64,000 bases of DNA from Escherichia phage vB_Eco4M-7, in sequence record MN176217; one strand, 5' to 3'. This document shows, one piece after another, positions 43,193 through 57,676 of the stretch (position 1 is the stretch's first letter; every line of letters starts with the position of its first letter). The position numbers and the translations under genes were made by a program. The notes beneath the pieces are model-generated. The model ran no database searches. It worked only from the letters and a program-made list of their open reading frames with translations, and was not told where the DNA came from.

Positions 43193-44053
43193 TTAAAACT
43201 CTTCTGCGTCGGTCGGAGTTTCATTGACAGGACCAGCGGCACCGCTTGCTTCTTCCTGCTTGCTGCGGTCGATGTTAACGTTACCGCCAACTACGTCGTT
43301 GTGGAATGCCTTGGCGACTTCGTACAGGCCTTTGTCCTGCACCAGACCTTCTAGCTCAAACTTCAGAACAGACCAGGTGTTGCCGTCTTTGGACTGGGAT
43401 GCAGTACCCATGCGAACGATGTTCATAAAGGTCGGCGGCGTTTTCAGACCCTGCGGAGTCTGAACTTTCTTCTGCTGCAGAGCGGTCATCAGCATGCGAG
43501 ACGGCTTGATCATGGAAGAAGTCAGAGACAGCATTGCGCTACCAAATTCACCAGTTTCTTCGTTCAACAGAATTACGAAGTGGTTGCGTGTATCTGCGTA
43601 GTAAGGAGATTTCTTCTCGTGCACCTTGCCGTTTTCGTCCGGCACGAATACCTTACCGTTGATCTCAACAGCGCGGCCTGCCGCGACTTCTGCATCAACG
43701 TGCTCTTTGGTGAATTCACCTTTAAAGCCTTTATCGTCGGACTCGCGACCGCCCCAAAGAATGAAGGTGCGTTTGAATGCGCAAGGGATGATCTGCACGC
43801 CTTTCTTACCGTCATACAACTCACCAGTAACGGTGTTGTAAAGCATGCCAGCTTTTGCACCAGGAACGTGTTTTGGATCATCTTCGTCGACCATAGGAGA
43901 CATCTTCTGCAGGACGACGATAAAAGGAATGGCATACGCATCGGCATCGGCACCTTCAAAACCAGCGCCAAAATCGGTCATGTCGACAAAATCAGCCATA
44001 GCGGACATCTGGGTGTTTTTCACTGCAACTTCGGTAGTTTCTTTCTTAGACAT
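43193..44053 (-). CDS. Single-stranded DNA-binding protein candidate (T7 gp2.5-like)
   Basis: 286 aa with acidic C-terminal tail ending ...TDAEEF, as in SSB interaction tails. Confidence 0.4.
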   Translation of the reverse strand: MSKKETTEVAVKNTQMSAMADFVDMTDFGAGFEGADADAYAIPFIVVLQKMSPMVDEDDPKHVPGAKAGMLYNTVTGELYDGKKGVQIIPCAFKRTFILWGGRESDDKGFKGEFTKEHVDAEVAAGRAVEINGKVFVPDENGKVHEKKSPYYADTRNHFVILLNEETGEFGSAMLSLTSSMIKPSRMLMTALQQKKVQTPQGLKTPPTFMNIVRMGTASQSKDGNTWSVLKFELEGLVQDKGLYEVAKAFHNDVVGGNVNIDRSKQEEASGAAGPVNETPTDAEEF

Positions 44054-44112: not shown

Positions 44113-44670
44113 TTACTTTTTGCTTTTAGGCAAGGTTATTTTAGCTTCTTTGTATTCAAAAACGCTAATATCTTCACTAACTGGGTTGCCCGCTTCCAGC
44201 TGTTCTTTTACAAATGACTTCAGTGTAGCAGAATGAACGCCTTGTTTCAATGTGGCTTCAACACCATCTTCACGCAGCGCGGCAACAATCTCTTGCGCCT
44301 GTTCGATTTCTTCGCGACCGAACTCAGCCGTGACGCTGGACTTGATCAAGCCGCCGTAACCGTTGTTTACAAGCCAATCGAAAACTTTTAATTCGTTTTC
44401 TTTCTTGATTGAAGCGTTCACCTTGGACTCGACCTTGATTTTGGTCTTGTCCTCAAGCTTGATTTCGGACACACCAAGCTCATCCATAACGCCAGGAAGC
44501 AGAACAGTTTTGATTTCACTGATGCGCTGCTTTTGCATATCAGCTTCATCTTCAAGCTCTGTCAAAGCTTCTTGGCGTTCTGCCAGTTCAGATACTAAGC
44601 GCGCAAGGCGCTCTTGAATGCCCTCAGGAGCAACCTGCGGCAAATCATCTTCCCAATTAATATTGCTCAT
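44113..44670 (-). CDS. hypothetical protein with N-terminal coiled coil
   Basis: ORF 185 aa. Confidence 0.4.
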   Translation of the reverse strand: MSNINWEDDLPQVAPEGIQERLARLVSELAERQEALTELEDEADMQKQRISEIKTVLLPGVMDELGVSEIKLEDKTKIKVESKVNASIKKENELKVFDWLVNNGYGGLIKSSVTAEFGREEIEQAQEIVAALREDGVEATLKQGVHSATLKSFVKEQLEAGNPVSEDISVFEYKEAKITLPKSKK

Positions 44671-45004: not shown

Positions 45005-46528
45005 TTAATTCATCTTTTTGCCGTCGAGGATGTGATCAGCAAGCATAGACTTCATACTCAATGAACGCTGAATTTCTTCGTCGATGGTATCAACCCCAAT
45101 AAAATCAACATACAACACGCTTGATTTGGTGCCGATGCGGTGATTTCGGTCTTCGGATTGCTTGCGCAACTCGTTGTCATAGTTGCAAGAATAATAGATT
45201 GCCAAGTCGGCGGCGGTAAGCGTGATTCCGATGCCTGCCGCTGCAGCGTGACAAACTAAGACTTGCGTTCCACCGTTCTCAACTGTGTTCTTTTGGAAGT
45301 CATCAATCAAGAACTCGCGCTGCTCTTTTGATGTTTCACCGTTGTACACACCAGTGACCACGCCTTCAGACTCAAGCCAATCCTTAATCTGGTTCATCTC
45401 TTCCTTAAAGATGGCCCAAACAATGAATTTGCGCTCTGGGTCATCTTCCAACACCCCTTCCACATAGTCCTTAAAGGCCGTGAATCGTGGGTTGTCTTCC
45501 ATGTACACCATCTCATCATACACCTTAACAAAGCCTGATGTCACCTGCTTCATCTTAGTGCGAGATGCGATCATCTCAAACTTAACGTTTTCTTCTTCGC
45601 CTTTATACTCCATCAGATAGTTGTACTCATTCTTGAGTTCATCATAGACATCGCGCTGCTTAGGCGACAACTCGAAGTCGATAAACTTGTACACCTTCTC
45701 TGGAAGGTCCGGCAGGTATTCCGCTTTTGTCGCGCGGAAATAGTGCGGCTCCATCAGCCGGATAAGCTTGTCAAGGTTTTTGTACATCGGTCGGCCAAAC
45801 TGGTCTTTGCGCGGCACTTGCGGAATGCCATAACCGTTGCCGCCGATTTTCTTGAGAATGGCCTGCATCTCTGGGTCGTGCGCTTCAAGTAGTACTGTGA
45901 ATTCAGAGTTAAATGCGCGGAACGATTTGGTGCCAAGCAAACCTGCTTCAAGGAAGTGATACTGCATGTAAATATCAGCAGGCGAGCGCGGCAGCGGCGT
46001 ACCGGAAAGGATTCGACGGGCCTTTGCCAGCCGTCCCAATTCCACAACCTTGATGGAGCGTTTGGCTGTGTTATTTTTGATACGCGTCGATTCATCAATG
46101 ATCATCAAACAGCGGTATTTCTTCAAGACCGACTCAATGTGTTGATAACCGACTGGTGTGTTGACGGTGTCAATGTTGAATGAGAAGATGCGCGCAGGCA
46201 CTTCGCCTTCAGGGTAGTGATCAGCAAACATCTTCTCCCAAAGCGCCTTGCCCTTTTTAGTCTTCATCTTGTCATTGCCGCGCCAGTAATGCCCAATCCA
46301 CTTGATGGAAAGGTGTTCTGGTGCTTCACGACGAATCCAGTTTGAGTGTACACCGTTAGGAGCGATGACAACCATGGCATCAAATGCGCCAGCGGCGAAG
46401 TGTTTTTCAAACTCTGCCAAAGCGGTCCAGGTTTTGCCAAGACCCTGCTCCATAAAATAAGCAAAGTATTTTCTGCGGCCTGCTTTATCAAGCGCCAATA
46501 ATTGGTGGCGCATTCCTTGTGTTTTCAT
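45005..46528 (-). CDS. SNF2-family (DEAD/DEAH) helicase
   Basis: Motif I GLGKT, motif II IIDESTRIKN, C-terminal helicase domain. Confidence 0.7.
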   Translation of the reverse strand: MKTQGMRHQLLALDKAGRRKYFAYFMEQGLGKTWTALAEFEKHFAAGAFDAMVVIAPNGVHSNWIRREAPEHLSIKWIGHYWRGNDKMKTKKGKALWEKMFADHYPEGEVPARIFSFNIDTVNTPVGYQHIESVLKKYRCLMIIDESTRIKNNTAKRSIKVVELGRLAKARRILSGTPLPRSPADIYMQYHFLEAGLLGTKSFRAFNSEFTVLLEAHDPEMQAILKKIGGNGYGIPQVPRKDQFGRPMYKNLDKLIRLMEPHYFRATKAEYLPDLPEKVYKFIDFELSPKQRDVYDELKNEYNYLMEYKGEEENVKFEMIASRTKMKQVTSGFVKVYDEMVYMEDNPRFTAFKDYVEGVLEDDPERKFIVWAIFKEEMNQIKDWLESEGVVTGVYNGETSKEQREFLIDDFQKNTVENGGTQVLVCHAAAAGIGITLTAADLAIYYSCNYDNELRKQSEDRNHRIGTKSSVLYVDFIGVDTIDEEIQRSLSMKSMLADHILDGKKMN

Positions 46529-53515: not shown

Positions 53516-53962
53516 TTAACGGTAGTTAACTAGTTGCTGATCACCAGAGAAGGTGCAATGATAAACGAATTGTGCGTTATAAAGCAACTGAAAACTTTTC
53601 TTTGGTTCATTATTAGAACTCATTGATGTAAAGATTTCTGCACCAGAACGGTTTTCACCAATAAGGTTTATAAAGCCGCCAGTTGAACGAGGTTGGACGA
53701 AAGTGAAACGTTGCATCCACGGAGTGCGGTTGGCACCTTTCCCTGTGAATCCCTGAATCTGAATATTCAGACCTTCTTGCTCGTTCACACCGATGTAAGT
53801 GGTAATTGTTGCGCCAGTCGTCGCTGCAGTCTTGCCGTCCATCGCTTCGCAATCGTAAACAGCGATTGAATCGGAAGTACGGACAGCGGCTTCAGTCGCT
53901 TCCATATACATGGTTCCGAGAATAGCAGTTGCGGCAAGCGCGATTCCAGTGATGCGTTTCAT
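53516..53962 (-). CDS. Secreted hypothetical protein
   Basis: N-terminal hydrophobic signal-like segment MKRITGIALAATAILG. Confidence 0.4.
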   Translation of the reverse strand: MKRITGIALAATAILGTMYMEATEAAVRTSDSIAVYDCEAMDGKTAATTGATITTYIGVNEQEGLNIQIQGFTGKGANRTPWMQRFTFVQPRSTGGFINLIGENRSGAEIFTSMSSNNEPKKSFQLLYNAQFVYHCTFSGDQQLVNYR

Positions 53963-54027: not shown

Positions 54028-55023
54028 TTATTTATTAGCAATATAAGCAAATTTTTGATAGTTATTTGCTTTGATGAGTTTTTCAACTTCAGCAAGGTCA
54101 TGGGCGACGTCATCAAGCAAAATGTTTCGCCAAGTAGCGAATCGACCGACACTAAATACGTTCAAATCCATGGTCAGTTGCAGGAGTAGGGCGTGTCGTA
54201 AGTCTTTCGGAATGTCGACAATCTTGCCATACTTCTGGTCGACCTTTTCAACTTCTTCAAGAGCGATGTCACTCCATGAGAGGCCAAAAGCCGTCAACAC
54301 TTCGTCAACTTCTGCACGCAACTTAATGTCACGGTAACGAGTAATGCCGCCAGCGGCTTCAACTGCGGCTTCACTTACGCTAACCAAAGGAATTGTTTCA
54401 ATGATCAGCGTGTCACCAGTGATTGATGCGCGGTAAGTTCTGACGGAGTAGTCAGGAAAGTAAATGGTTTGATACAGTTCACACTTGCGTTTAATCTTAA
54501 AGCGGTAAACACGAATGTTTGCCTTATCGAATGAGAAATCAATCTTTTGATCAATCCCAGCAAGCTTCATCATGACTGGCAGCGGCGATGTGTTGATGAT
54601 TGGCGTCTCGCTATAGCCGCAAAGCGTGTCGACCGGAGTATTAAAGAATATACGGTCACCCAGTTTATCGACAAGCTGATCATAAAAGTCATCAGGCGCA
54701 ATATAACGCGTTGCAGTTTTAAGCTTCATGATTGAACGGCTGCCAAACTGATTGGTGACCTTCATGGAATACATATTGGCAAGGTTGATTGGGCAATGGT
54801 CGTGATAGTAGTTACCGCGAAAATACACAGCCTTGTCAACTGTCACGGCCTTAAAAGGGATTCCGGTAATACGGCTTACTTCTTCGCCGCGAAAGCGTAG
54901 CAGGGCCTTGTGCTGTGGCGCTCGCTCCCCTGCTTCGTACACAATAGAGTTCGGGAAGTGACACGCGGTAATAAGTCCTGCCAAACCGCCGCCGATAATC
55001 ATTACAGGTTGTTTCATGTTCAT
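54028..55023 (-). CDS. FAD/NAD(P)-binding oxidoreductase
   Basis: N-terminal Rossmann dinucleotide motif MIIGGGLAGL. Confidence 0.55.
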   Translation of the reverse strand: MNMKQPVMIIGGGLAGLITACHFPNSIVYEAGERAPQHKALLRFRGEEVSRITGIPFKAVTVDKAVYFRGNYYHDHCPINLANMYSMKVTNQFGSRSIMKLKTATRYIAPDDFYDQLVDKLGDRIFFNTPVDTLCGYSETPIINTSPLPVMMKLAGIDQKIDFSFDKANIRVYRFKIKRKCELYQTIYFPDYSVRTYRASITGDTLIIETIPLVSVSEAAVEAAGGITRYRDIKLRAEVDEVLTAFGLSWSDIALEEVEKVDQKYGKIVDIPKDLRHALLLQLTMDLNVFSVGRFATWRNILLDDVAHDLAEVEKLIKANNYQKFAYIANK

Positions 55024-55100
55024 TTGTCCTTTGTGGGTGATATGAGAAGTATAATAGCTAAATTATTTTACAGCAACAAGTCATTTCTATTTAGTACAGA

Positions 55101-55129
55101 CGAAAAAAGACCCACAACAAGTGTGGGTC
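55101..55129 (-). terminator. Rho-independent terminator on minus strand (GACCCACA-loop-TGTGGGTC then UUUUUU)
   Basis: 8-bp stem and T6 tract on minus strand 30 nt after stop of 55158..56003. Confidence 0.6.
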
Positions 55130-55157: not shown

Positions 55158-56003
55158 TTATTCCGCTTGATCACCGTCTTCAGCATCGTCGTTGGATTCA
55201 ACATCGACAAACTCGATGTGGCCCATCTCTTCCAGCTTGCTCAGGTAGGAGCGAACAGAAGCGCCAAACAGTTGATCTTTAACTTTTTCGCCCAGCTCAT
55301 CGATAGACTGTGCCACACCAACTTCGCCTTCTTTGATCGCCGCCAGAACGCGTCCACGGGTGGAATGCTCTTGCGGCTGGCTCAGGCCATTGCCAGTGTA
55401 GATGAAGTGAGTGGCTTTTGCACGACGCTGACCGTTTGCCTTTTTAGCAGCCTTACGTTCTGCGATGGCTTTGCGACGTTCTTCAGCTTCTTTCTTACGC
55501 TGTTCTTTCTGCTGTTCTGCAGCTTCTTTCGCCGCAATCTTAGCAGCTTCACGCTCTGCCTTGCGTTTCGCTTTAGCTTCTTCTTTGGCCTTCTCTTTTT
55601 CGGCCTTCGCTGCAGCACGGGCTTGATCACGCTCTGCTTTCTTGGCCGCAGCCTGCTCAGCTTTCAGGCGCTTGGCTTCTTCTTTAGCCTTTGCCTTTTC
55701 GATTTCTTTTGCTGCTTTAGCGGCTTCACGCTCTGCTTTCTTGGCAGCAGCCTTTTCTGCACGCTCTTTAGCTTTCTTAGCTGCTTCTTCAGCACGCTTC
55801 TGAGCCTTCTCATCAGCAGCCTGCTTGCGTTTCAGCGCAGCTTCTTCACGCTTGGCTTGTTTTTCCTGCTCACGCTTCTGGCGTTTTTCTTCGGCTTCTT
55901 TCTTTTTAGCCAGGCGTTTTTCTTCAGCCACGCGACGACGTTCTGCTGCGGCTGCTTGTTTTTCTTCTTTAGATAATACTTTGATTGCTTCGGCCATATT
56001 CAC
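55158..56003 (-). CDS. Lys/Ala/Glu-rich charged helical protein with small C-terminal globular domain
   Basis: About 200 aa of KAE-rich repeats then an 80-aa non-repetitive C-terminus. Confidence 0.5.
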   Translation of the reverse strand: MNMAEAIKVLSKEEKQAAAAERRRVAEEKRLAKKKEAEEKRQKREQEKQAKREEAALKRKQAADEKAQKRAEEAAKKAKERAEKAAAKKAEREAAKAAKEIEKAKAKEEAKRLKAEQAAAKKAERDQARAAAKAEKEKAKEEAKAKRKAEREAAKIAAKEAAEQQKEQRKKEAEERRKAIAERKAAKKANGQRRAKATHFIYTGNGLSQPQEHSTRGRVLAAIKEGEVGVAQSIDELGEKVKDQLFGASVRSYLSKLEEMGHIEFVDVESNDDAEDGDQAE

Positions 56004-56156
56004 AGTCCTTAAATAAATTAGTTTATTTTATATTCCCCGTTTGGGATAACTTAATTATGCCTTCAGTCGTCGCCAGTAGCAACTAAAAACTATGGCGGCA
56101 ATGCCACTTTAATTAAACTGATTTTCAGTTTTATTTTTCGTAAATTTACGTCAACA

Positions 56157-57341
56157 TTAACGCGCTTTCAAATCACGGTACACGGTCAGATTCTTCTTAG
56201 CGCGGGTGATTGCGGTGTACATCATCTTGGAGTACGGGACGCCGCGCAAGATTTCTTCCAGCACGCACACGTTATCCCACTCGCTGCCTTGCGATTTGTG
56301 CACCGTGATTACATAGCCATAGTCCATCCCGCCAACAGCGCGTTGCGCTTCTTTGCGCACTTCCTGATCAGTAGAGAAGGAAAGAGGATTGATCTTCACC
56401 TTTATATCTTTACCATCAGTTAATGAACGCAAGTTGACATACATTATTTCATTCGACTCGTCTTCATCCCTTTCAAAGTCCGGCACTGGTTCATAGCTAA
56501 TAACAATCCCCTGCTCGCCATTACAGAATCCTGGCCCGTGCTGGTTGAAGGTGCAAATAACTTTCTCGCCGATTCCTGGCATTGGCGTTATACGTCCGCT
56601 CACTTGCCGTAATAATGAATTCCATTTATCTTTGGTGCTATTATAGGAGCAAATAATTTGATCATCTTCGCCCATGAATTTCTTCAATGCAGTAACGCGC
56701 GGCGATTCTGCCAATACTTTGACGTCATCGTATTCACGCGGAGGAAGGCGGTTGCCTTGGCGCACGAAGAAGGAGGCGCGGATTATATTGGACTCTTTCC
56801 CTTGCCGCATGATTTCGGTTAACAGCACGTCAACGGCATCTTCAGTAAAGTAGGCGGCGGCTTTTACCGGAGGGACTTGTCCAATGTCGCCTAATGCCAG
56901 GACAGGGATGCGGTGATCAAGAAGGCGCTCTGTGTCCCACTCGCCAACCATCGACGCTTCATCGAGTACAACAAGGTGCGGCCTTTCATCCAGCTTTGAC
57001 TTTCTCGAAAAGATTGGCTCATTGTCGTCATTTACGCCGCGCACGTTATAGATGAACTGGTGAAGGGTCTTAGCGCCACGACAGCCTTTTTGCTTTAATC
57101 GGCTTGCAGCCTTTCCGGTCGGCGCAATATAGATAGCGCCGTACTCACCGACACAGCGGCGCACAATCTCACGAGCAATAGAGGTTTTACCAGTCCCTGC
57201 ATAGCCAGCAATGAAAAACACACGCTTCGTCGTTTTACCGTCCTGCAATCGCTTGTACCATGCAACGGCCTTCTCGATGGCATCGATTTGTTGCGCGTTA
57301 AACTGAATAACTGGCTCATCATTAAATTCTGGAATGTTCAT
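56157..57341 (-). CDS. SF1B DNA helicase (Dda / RecD-like)
   Basis: Walker A GYAGTGKTS and downstream helicase motifs. Confidence 0.7.
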   Translation of the reverse strand: MNIPEFNDEPVIQFNAQQIDAIEKAVAWYKRLQDGKTTKRVFFIAGYAGTGKTSIAREIVRRCVGEYGAIYIAPTGKAASRLKQKGCRGAKTLHQFIYNVRGVNDDNEPIFSRKSKLDERPHLVVLDEASMVGEWDTERLLDHRIPVLALGDIGQVPPVKAAAYFTEDAVDVLLTEIMRQGKESNIIRASFFVRQGNRLPPREYDDVKVLAESPRVTALKKFMGEDDQIICSYNSTKDKWNSLLRQVSGRITPMPGIGEKVICTFNQHGPGFCNGEQGIVISYEPVPDFERDEDESNEIMYVNLRSLTDGKDIKVKINPLSFSTDQEVRKEAQRAVGGMDYGYVITVHKSQGSEWDNVCVLEEILRGVPYSKMMYTAITRAKKNLTVYRDLKAR

Positions 57342-57676
57342 TATAACTCCACTACGCTGTCAAGGTCCAGATATACTGGAATAAAATGGCAATCTTCTTT
57401 TCGTTCAAACATCTCACCATCAACATGGCTGAAGAAAACAGTTGTGTTTGGTATCTTCCATCCTTTCTCGTCGCGCACTAAGTACGCCATGGATTCAACA
57501 GGGATGTACAGCGATACCGGATTTGCGGCAAAAATAAATTTGATTCTGTCTGGTTGACCCAGGAATCGCATGATTGTTAGGCTTGAATTCAATCTTGTAT
57601 TAAGGAAGGACTCAACGATTCCGACGTGTGTTGCACGTTCGCGTTGCTTCGTCTCTTTTTCGTTCATTTCAGGCAA
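57341..57676 (-). CDS. hypothetical protein
   Basis: ORF 111 aa, first gene of minus-strand operon. Confidence 0.4.
   Translation of the reverse strand: MPEMNEKETKQRERATHVGIVESFLNTRLNSSLTIMRFLGQPDRIKFIFAANPVSLYIPVESMAYLVRDEKGWKIPNTTVFFSHVDGEMFERKEDCHFIPVYLDLDSVVEL

Follow-up and report, generated by a model that had tools for sequence, protein, structure and literature searches.

The window analysed here, 64,000 nt of the Wifcevirus Escherichia phage vB_Eco4M-7 (sequence record MN176217), contains on the minus strand at 55158..55997 a gene for a protein of 279 residues (31.1 kDa, pI 9.6) which is catalogued, uncharacterised and misnamed. The gene is expressed, is under strong purifying selection and keeps its place beside a helicase gene in every phage genus examined. 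Its product is predicted to be built from a single alpha-helix carrying a basic stripe, a winged-helix domain of a new family and an acidic tail, a combination undescribed in the searchable literature. We tentatively propose that it is an architectural protein, abundant and binding DNA irrespective of sequence, which may be packaged along with the phage genome.

The coding sequence was defined by the list of open reading frames (ORFs), the annotation, a match to a PHROG family, the variation by codon position and published mass spectrometry. The stop codon lies at 55158–55160 and the start is the ATG at 55997 in all 28 Wifcevirus records, each copy measuring exactly 840 nt with zero indels. 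The preliminary description of this DNA had recognised the minus-strand ORF and extended it to position 56003; the ORF exists, and its start was moved from the GTG at 56003 to the annotated ATG two codons downstream. The 4-kb stretch around the gene showed 95–99.8% identity to the 27 other Wifcevirus records, and within Wifcevirus the gene is labelled either "hypothetical protein" or "TolA protein". In the comparison with phage Mansfield, 23 of the 24 nucleotide differences fell at third codon positions of the minus frame, in which 22 changes were synonymous and 2 non-synonymous. Among eight Wifcevirus genomes, the same codon position held 71 of the 79 variable sites, and only 7 amino-acid sites varied in the sense translation. 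The minus-strand gene is real.

The first 190 residues of the protein are made of 30% Ala, 24% Lys, 20.5% Glu and 10.5% Arg, with a net charge of +25. AlphaFold2 (a monomer run on an 11-sequence alignment, with a predicted template modelling score (pTM) of 0.38) gave a single uninterrupted helix from residue 10 to residue 185 (55443..55970, minus strand), with a predicted local distance difference test score (pLDDT) mostly of 80–96, then a domain at about 197–264 and a disordered acidic tail. The helix would be approximately 26 nm long (176 residues at 0.15 nm each) with a net charge of +24. Strong hydrophobic residues are scarce in this part of the protein (11 in residues 1–190, of which 7 are in the helix) and never clustered. 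An apolar seam with a period of 3.5 residues was not found; the apolar periodicity was weak and peaked at 3.8, the heptad signal was weak, and the phase strength of Ala was R = 0.02. A heptad coiled coil was rejected for want of the 3.5-residue apolar signal. The region is thus a putative single alpha-helix (SAH), a long uninterrupted helix (here predicted) devoid of a hydrophobic seam, and the single-helix-like nature first attributed to this Lys/Ala/Glu-rich segment is upheld by the model and by the missing seam. The segment had also been presented as some 200 residues of repeats. The composition is as described; true repeats are lacking, the order consisting of a charge periodicity of about 11 residues. 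A tandem repeat at the DNA level was rejected as well, Tandem Repeats Finder returning a single 15-nt unit in two copies.

In the helix, basic residues recurred with a period of 3.70 residues, and none of 500 shuffles matched the observed power; the resultant length R of this basic stripe was 0.38–0.40. The acidic residues were located approximately 180 degrees from the basic face (phases of 298 versus 122 degrees). The sequence of the helix differs from genus to genus, yet a stripe with a period of 3.65–3.70 was present in seven out of seven divergent family members, at most one of 300 shuffles reaching the observed power in each, and in every member tested the two faces were opposed by about 180 degrees. 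The KER region of human CAF-1, the positive control, gave a weaker stripe (13 of 300 shuffles), and the stripe was absent from domain II of E. coli TolA, for which 251 of 300 shuffles reached the observed power. In the eight Wifcevirus genomes, the 190-residue helix region accumulated 46 variable nucleotides, a single amino-acid change and zero indels, and the ratio of non-synonymous to synonymous substitution rates (dN/dS) within Wifcevirus was about 0–0.01. Such near-absolute purifying selection, together with the conserved stripe, indicates that the helix region is a constrained functional surface and not a sloppy spacer. The tether or spacer role suggested at the outset is weakened both by this ratio and by the N-terminus, in which a second conserved module was not found across the family members.

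Residues 186–264 (55206..55442, minus strand) are predicted to form a winged-helix domain preceded by a basic linker, whose GxRRxKATH motif is conserved in the family; in the AlphaFold2 model the domain is a three-helix bundle with a beta-sheet wing. The elements of this domain are a strand at 197–200, a helix at 213–222, a strand at 229–231, helices at 232–238 and 248–257, and a strand at 261–264. The residues R193, Q210, S213, R215, R250, K255 and L256 of the linker and domain are invariant in the family (R9, Q26, S29, R31, R66, K71 and L72 in the first row of the family alignment, plus 184). The protein ends with the acidic tail DVESNDDAEDGDQAE (residues 265–279; 55161..55205, minus strand), predicted to be disordered (pLDDT below 50 for residues 269–279). 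Its 15 residues have a net charge of about -8, and among 31 family members 29 have a tail of net negative charge. The non-repetitive C-terminal domain of 80 residues initially noticed is therefore a distinct entity, composed of a linker and winged helix of about that size (186–264) to which the 15-residue tail has to be added.

Mass spectrometry of vB_Eco4M-7 particles banded in caesium chloride (CsCl) identified "vB_Eco4M-7_83, TolA protein, 31.1 kDa" with 7 peptides, a coverage of 25.8% and a score of 1197.6, which exceeds the scores of the portal and sheath proteins; the orthologue in phage ECML-117 was likewise detected, with a score of 3.2 (PMC7048862). The gene is thus expressed, and its product is present in CsCl-purified phage preparations. 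The computed mass of the minus-strand product (31,130 Da) agrees with the reported 31.1 kDa, and ordinary tryptic peptides were computed to cover only about 43% of the protein. The codon-adaptation index (0.592; median 0.296) was the highest of the 61 ORFs in the window with 100 residues or more, the non-overlapping longest ORFs serving as background. It lay above that of the likely capsid gene, and its value was equal in the parts encoding the helix and the C-terminal domain. This first rank points to a role requiring many copies, not to a catalytic one. The gene is probably transcribed at a very high level.

The whole protein (residues 1–279) matched PHROG 4765, listed with function unknown, with an E value of 2.4e-84. 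It belongs to a narrow, phage-only family distributed over Pbunavirus, Wifcevirus, Myosmarvirus, Bcepfunavirus and Carpasinavirus. A tblastn search with the C-terminal domain retrieved 356 phage records, of which 293 were named Pseudomonas phage and 28 were Wifcevirus. The Pseudomonas phage records inspected were Pbunavirus, including PB1, 14-1 and E217, and the other carriers included Serratia phage MTx, Pantoea phage PA1, Erwinia phage TropicalSun, Burkholderia phage BcepF1, Xanthomonas phage XcP1 and Aeromonas phage Gekk3-15. An exhaustive phmmer search over 1.84 billion representatives returned 27 family representatives, with the domain C-terminal in all of them, and no cellular relative. 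A full-length homology search gave 8 matches among 8000 scored candidates, the rest being low-complexity word matches, and word-index searches with the C-terminal domain alone or with its profile found only 3–4 near relatives. No Pfam match was obtained for the protein (E values up to 1), for its domain or for 20 family members; a sequence search of solved structures gave compositional matches only, and a viral structure library gave family members only. The charged helical region varies from 89 to 263 residues in the family and is net positive in 29 of 31 members. The N-terminus is variable and sometimes His-rich. Many metagenomic members (L003 10001–10834; P0004–P0008, P0015, P0024 and P0025) begin in this way, for example with MSHGHHHHTQDAGHTHG, and the Wifcevirus and Pbunavirus proteins do not. 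Judging from the sequences, this start suggests an optional metal-binding segment.

As described from the start, the gene lies in the replication module. It was found directly downstream of the gene for a Dda-like helicase at every locus and in every genus examined, and at most loci it precedes the genes for a conserved protein of about 330 residues and ThyX. No single-stranded-DNA-binding (SSB) or other DNA-coating protein is listed in the annotation of this replication module. The papers on JG024, KPP12, KTN6/KT28 and E217 and the 2026 Pbunavirus paper are silent on the gene, and the 2025 Pbunavirus genome analysis treats the neighbouring genes and not this one.

The closest physical parallel is the KER region of CAF-1 (Cac1/CHAF1A), a single alpha-helix with a basic stripe which binds DNA non-specifically with nanomolar affinity, acts together with a winged-helix domain and is affected by length changes of two residues (PMC10335832). 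The phage protein shares with it a long Lys/Glu/Arg-rich helix, a basic stripe on one face, a net positive charge and the co-occurrence of a winged-helix domain and an acidic segment, and the length sensitivity of CAF-1 function can be set beside the complete lack of indels in the 28 copies of the phage gene. However, homology was undetectable, a profile match to CHAF1A (E = 0.66) being compositional. The phage helix is also twice as long (176 versus about 90 residues) with 30% Ala, the order of the domains is different, and the phage protein is devoid of PIP boxes and of a histone-binding function. The binding of DNA is experimental for KER and putative for the phage protein.

Other systems show more partial likenesses. 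Linker histones H1/H5 and the bacterial H1-like proteins AlgP, Hc1 and the HupB tail are abundant and possess a long Lys/Ala-rich basic region, associated in H1/H5 with a winged-helix globular domain. The phage protein similarly combines a winged-helix domain with such a region, but here the basic region is N-terminal, helical, free of Pro and 20% Glu, and no Pfam match to linker histones and no globular domain of the GH1/GH5 type was found. KfrA-type proteins, likewise encoded by mobile elements (plasmids), possess a winged helix-turn-helix (HTH) at the N-terminus and a coiled-coil alpha-helical tail. The possible likeness is that of a small HTH-type domain joined to a very long charged helix; in KfrA the HTH is N-terminal and the tail a coiled coil, and the phage protein lacks any Pfam match. 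Abundant DNA-binding or internal proteins are known in phages, such as p6 of phi29 and the internal proteins of T4, and acidic tails are found in T7 gp2.5, T4 gp32 and SSB. Like these, the present protein is small, very highly expressed and suited to a many-copy role, with an acidic C-terminal tail resembling those of T7 gp2.5, T4 gp32 and SSB. Unlike the SSB and HU types, its AlphaFold2 model shows no oligonucleotide/oligosaccharide-binding (OB) fold, HU fold or beta-barrel, and there is no sequence similarity; by this model it is not an OB-fold SSB, which it resembles by the acidic tail only.

We propose on this basis a model of a "histone-like" architectural factor with two modules. In the first, the single helix of about 26 nm would carry an unbroken line of Lys and Arg along one of its faces, applying the physical principle of KER. 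In the second, nucleic acid would be contacted by the third helix of the winged-helix domain (VRSYLSKLEE) together with the four basic residues that are invariant. For the acidic tail we envisage either a folding back on the basic surfaces or the recruitment of a partner in the replisome. Phage DNA undergoing replication would be coated or organised by the protein, of which a share would end with the packaged genome in the virions. That the protein might be DNA-associated had been suggested from the beginning; the predicted winged-helix fold and the conserved basic stripe support this indirectly, and the binding itself is what we infer.

Several observations weigh against this architectural role. 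The helix has a net charge of only +0.02 to +0.08 per residue in most other genera, and the winged-helix domain bears no net charge (pI 7.0). The acidic face opposite the stripe and a near-neutral helix would suit lateral self-association equally well, and DNA binding is putative for every member of the family. The single-helix state is predicted from the shallow alignment and monomer run described above, with the pTM given there, and the codon-adaptation values depend on hand-entered weights of the Sharp–Li E. coli table. The virion preparations that yielded the protein also hold a glyoxalase-like protein and a helicase, highly expressed products from outside the structural module, and the association with virions is uneven between the two phages, with the score of 1197.6 in one and 3.2 in the other (PMC7048862). 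The protein is not mentioned in the searched text of the cryo-electron microscopy (cryo-EM) papers on E217 and Pa193.

A first alternative is that the protein truly belongs among the packaged internal or ejection proteins, entering the capsid together with the DNA or bound to it and passing into the host at infection, for example as a nuclease shield for the incoming genome. This overlaps with the architectural role and differs from it in making virion residence the primary function. We consider it somewhat unlikely. In its favour, mass spectrometry detected the protein in two Wifceviruses, in particles banded in CsCl, and it would agree with the restriction resistance of Wifceviruses. In addition, many orthologue records from Pbunavirus, Erwinia and Xanthomonas phages and from BFVD bear the label "putative structural protein", and the cryo-EM map of Pa193 contains an unassigned poly-Ala helical density under the capsid hexons. 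This density consists of three chains of poly-Ala, each some 16 residues long (PMC11456595), and is a candidate home for the Ala-rich helix of the orthologue. On the other side, the gene is situated in the replication module behind a sigma-70-like promoter, outside the late structural cluster, the score in ECML-117 is very low, and the helicase and glyoxalase-like protein of the same preparations recall that abundant, sticky proteins carry over; the silence of the searched text of the E217 and Pa193 papers also counts here. The packaged internal protein of the preliminary description has received some backing from the mass spectrometry of CsCl-purified phage, a true location inside the capsid being putative.

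A second alternative, which we think unlikely, is that the protein does not bind nucleic acid. The helix would associate laterally with copies of itself or serve as a stiff rod, and the protein would scaffold or organise the replication compartment, the winged-helix domain and the acidic tail docking on a protein partner such as the Dda-like helicase, the polymerase or the SNF2-type translocase. The opposite basic and acidic faces in all members tested, the near-neutral helix of many genera and the strict synteny with the Dda-like helicase would all fit such a scaffold, and the acidic tails of phage SSB proteins mediate replisome contacts. However, the N-terminus offers no second conserved module for a tether to join, there is no consistent apolar seam for oligomerisation (the Ala phase and heptad signals being those given above), and the invariant R, K, S and Q residues of the winged-helix domain are typical of nucleic-acid contact.

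The architectural role can also be extended to a kind of "phage chromatin", an idea to which we assign a low probability. The helix and winged-helix domain would coat the genome, be co-packaged and co-injected with it and shield it from restriction, and a SNF2-family translocase would strip or slide the protein off, clearing the DNA for replication and transcription. Wifceviruses are reported to show an unexpected, "considerable resistance to restriction". The candidate translocase is the 507-residue product of the gene at 45005–46528 (minus strand), annotated "DNA helicase", which contains a SNF2-related domain and Helicase_C; its Pbunavirus orthologue is said to resemble the chromatin remodelers Ino80/CHD1L (2025 paper). 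If true, the helix would be the first non-eukaryotic DNA-binding single alpha-helix, and the unassigned helical density under the Pbunavirus capsid hexons might be explained.

That the protein is a TolA homologue or mimic acting on the host Tol–Pal envelope system is very improbable. The preliminary description had compared the composition with that of TolA-like spacers; the proposal itself relies on the name used in some records and on the resemblance to TolA domain II, a long helical region rich in Ala, Lys and Glu from which the database name derives. The phage protein is deprived of a hydrophobic anchor or signal sequence (its N-terminus is MAEAIKVLSKEEK), and the Pfam profile of the TolA C-terminal domain (PF06519), which matches E. 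coli TolA at 2e-38, does not match it even at E = 1. BLASTP against E. coli TolA gave E = 0.17, limited to low-complexity segments, the phage C-terminal domain is predicted to be a winged helix, and TolA itself has no basic stripe. Membership in the TolA family is refuted by the missing anchor, the missing PF06519 domain and the lack of similarity beyond composition.

The last alternative, a real or additional product of the codon-aligned antisense ORF on the plus strand (55167..55976, 269 residues, Phe/Leu-rich), deserves practically no credence: the frame is open, and an antisense overlapping gene, DadIII-1, is known near the equivalent Pbunavirus locus, but 23 of the 24 differences with Mansfield are non-synonymous in it (one synonymous), 68 amino-acid sites vary among the eight genomes against the 7 in the sense frame, an extra stop interrupts it in Mansfield, and the reported 31.1-kDa mass is the one computed for the minus-strand product. 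The codons TTA, CTA and TCA are absent from the gene after Leu8 and CTG represents 9 of 10 Leu codons; with shared codon boundaries, the absence of these three codons is the reason why the plus strand remains open. The dismissal of the opposite-strand translation as an artefact was thus correct. Neither finding that would have refuted the preliminary description, a plus-strand product or a lack of expression, was borne out: the plus frame does not give the conserved product, and the protein is expressed.

The sequences flanking the gene suggest, from their motifs, a single-gene transcription unit with a promoter-like site and a terminator. The gap of 153 bp (56004–56156) that follows the Dda-like helicase gene contains a sigma-70-like promoter, TTGCTA and CATAAT separated by a 17-nt spacer (56054..56082, minus strand), with 9 of 12 matches in a consensus scan, a consensus match only. 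The hexamers are identical in three Wifceviruses, nearby differences being confined to the spacer. The gap as a whole is 99% identical across the three Wifceviruses, above the coding sequence (about 97%). A ribosome-binding site AAGGA (56006..56010, minus strand) is seen in the sequence 8 nt upstream of the ATG and is annotated in the Mansfield record. Downstream, a terminator scan located GACCCACA-CTTGT-TGTGGGTC followed by TTTTTT (55099..55129, minus strand), an intrinsic terminator with an 8-bp stem, 5 G–C pairs and a T-run (55129–55109). The RNA fold reaches -24.1 kcal/mol (z = -4.1), and the WFC and Mansfield records list the terminator too. The scan, the fold energy and these annotations bear out the view that the gene has its own terminator.

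Other genes of the window were noted in passing. The gene at 54028–55023 (minus strand, 331 residues; PHROG 4828, listed function unknown) follows directly in most genera examined, BcepF1 being an exception. Its product has no Pfam match and is designated UDP-galactopyranose mutase by HHpred in the Mansfield record. It neighbours ThyX, PNK/HAD, SDR, MazG and glyoxalase-like genes, and the ensemble could be a cluster for nucleotide or DNA modification. Inside the nucleotide-metabolism cluster, the gene at 53516–53962 (minus strand, 148 residues) encodes a protein with a signal-peptide-like N-terminus, MKRITGIALAATAILGTMYMEA, for which Pfam and PHROG matches were not found. Just upstream of the Dda-like helicase, an ORF of 89 codons at 57288–57557 (plus strand) is antisense to the small gene at 57341–57676 (minus strand); the Pbunavirus anti-Druantia gene DadIII-1 is reported to be antisense to the gene at the equivalent position (2025 paper). 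The genes at 43193–44053 and 44113–44670 (both minus strand), placed outside the structural cluster, gave Pam3_Gp34-like and Pam3 gp33-like (DUF7307) matches in Pfam and have the second and ninth highest codon adaptation in the window. By mass, their products appear to be vB_Eco4M-7_70 and _71 (31.2 and 20.7 kDa), detected by mass spectrometry in CsCl-banded virions.

Pbunaviruses are among the Pseudomonas phages most used in personalised therapy, and Wifceviruses are candidate agents for the biocontrol of E. coli O157. A highly expressed and strongly conserved gene of such phages carries a misleading name and no assigned function. The near-absolute purifying selection on a region of low-complexity appearance is a warning against calling such regions spacers. 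Should DNA binding by the helix prove true, the SAH DNA-binding domain would no longer be limited to the one eukaryotic example described (2023), the pairing of a basic-stripe helix with a winged-helix domain would be seen to have arisen by convergence, and a clue could be gained to the organisation, packaging or protection of the genomes of these phages.

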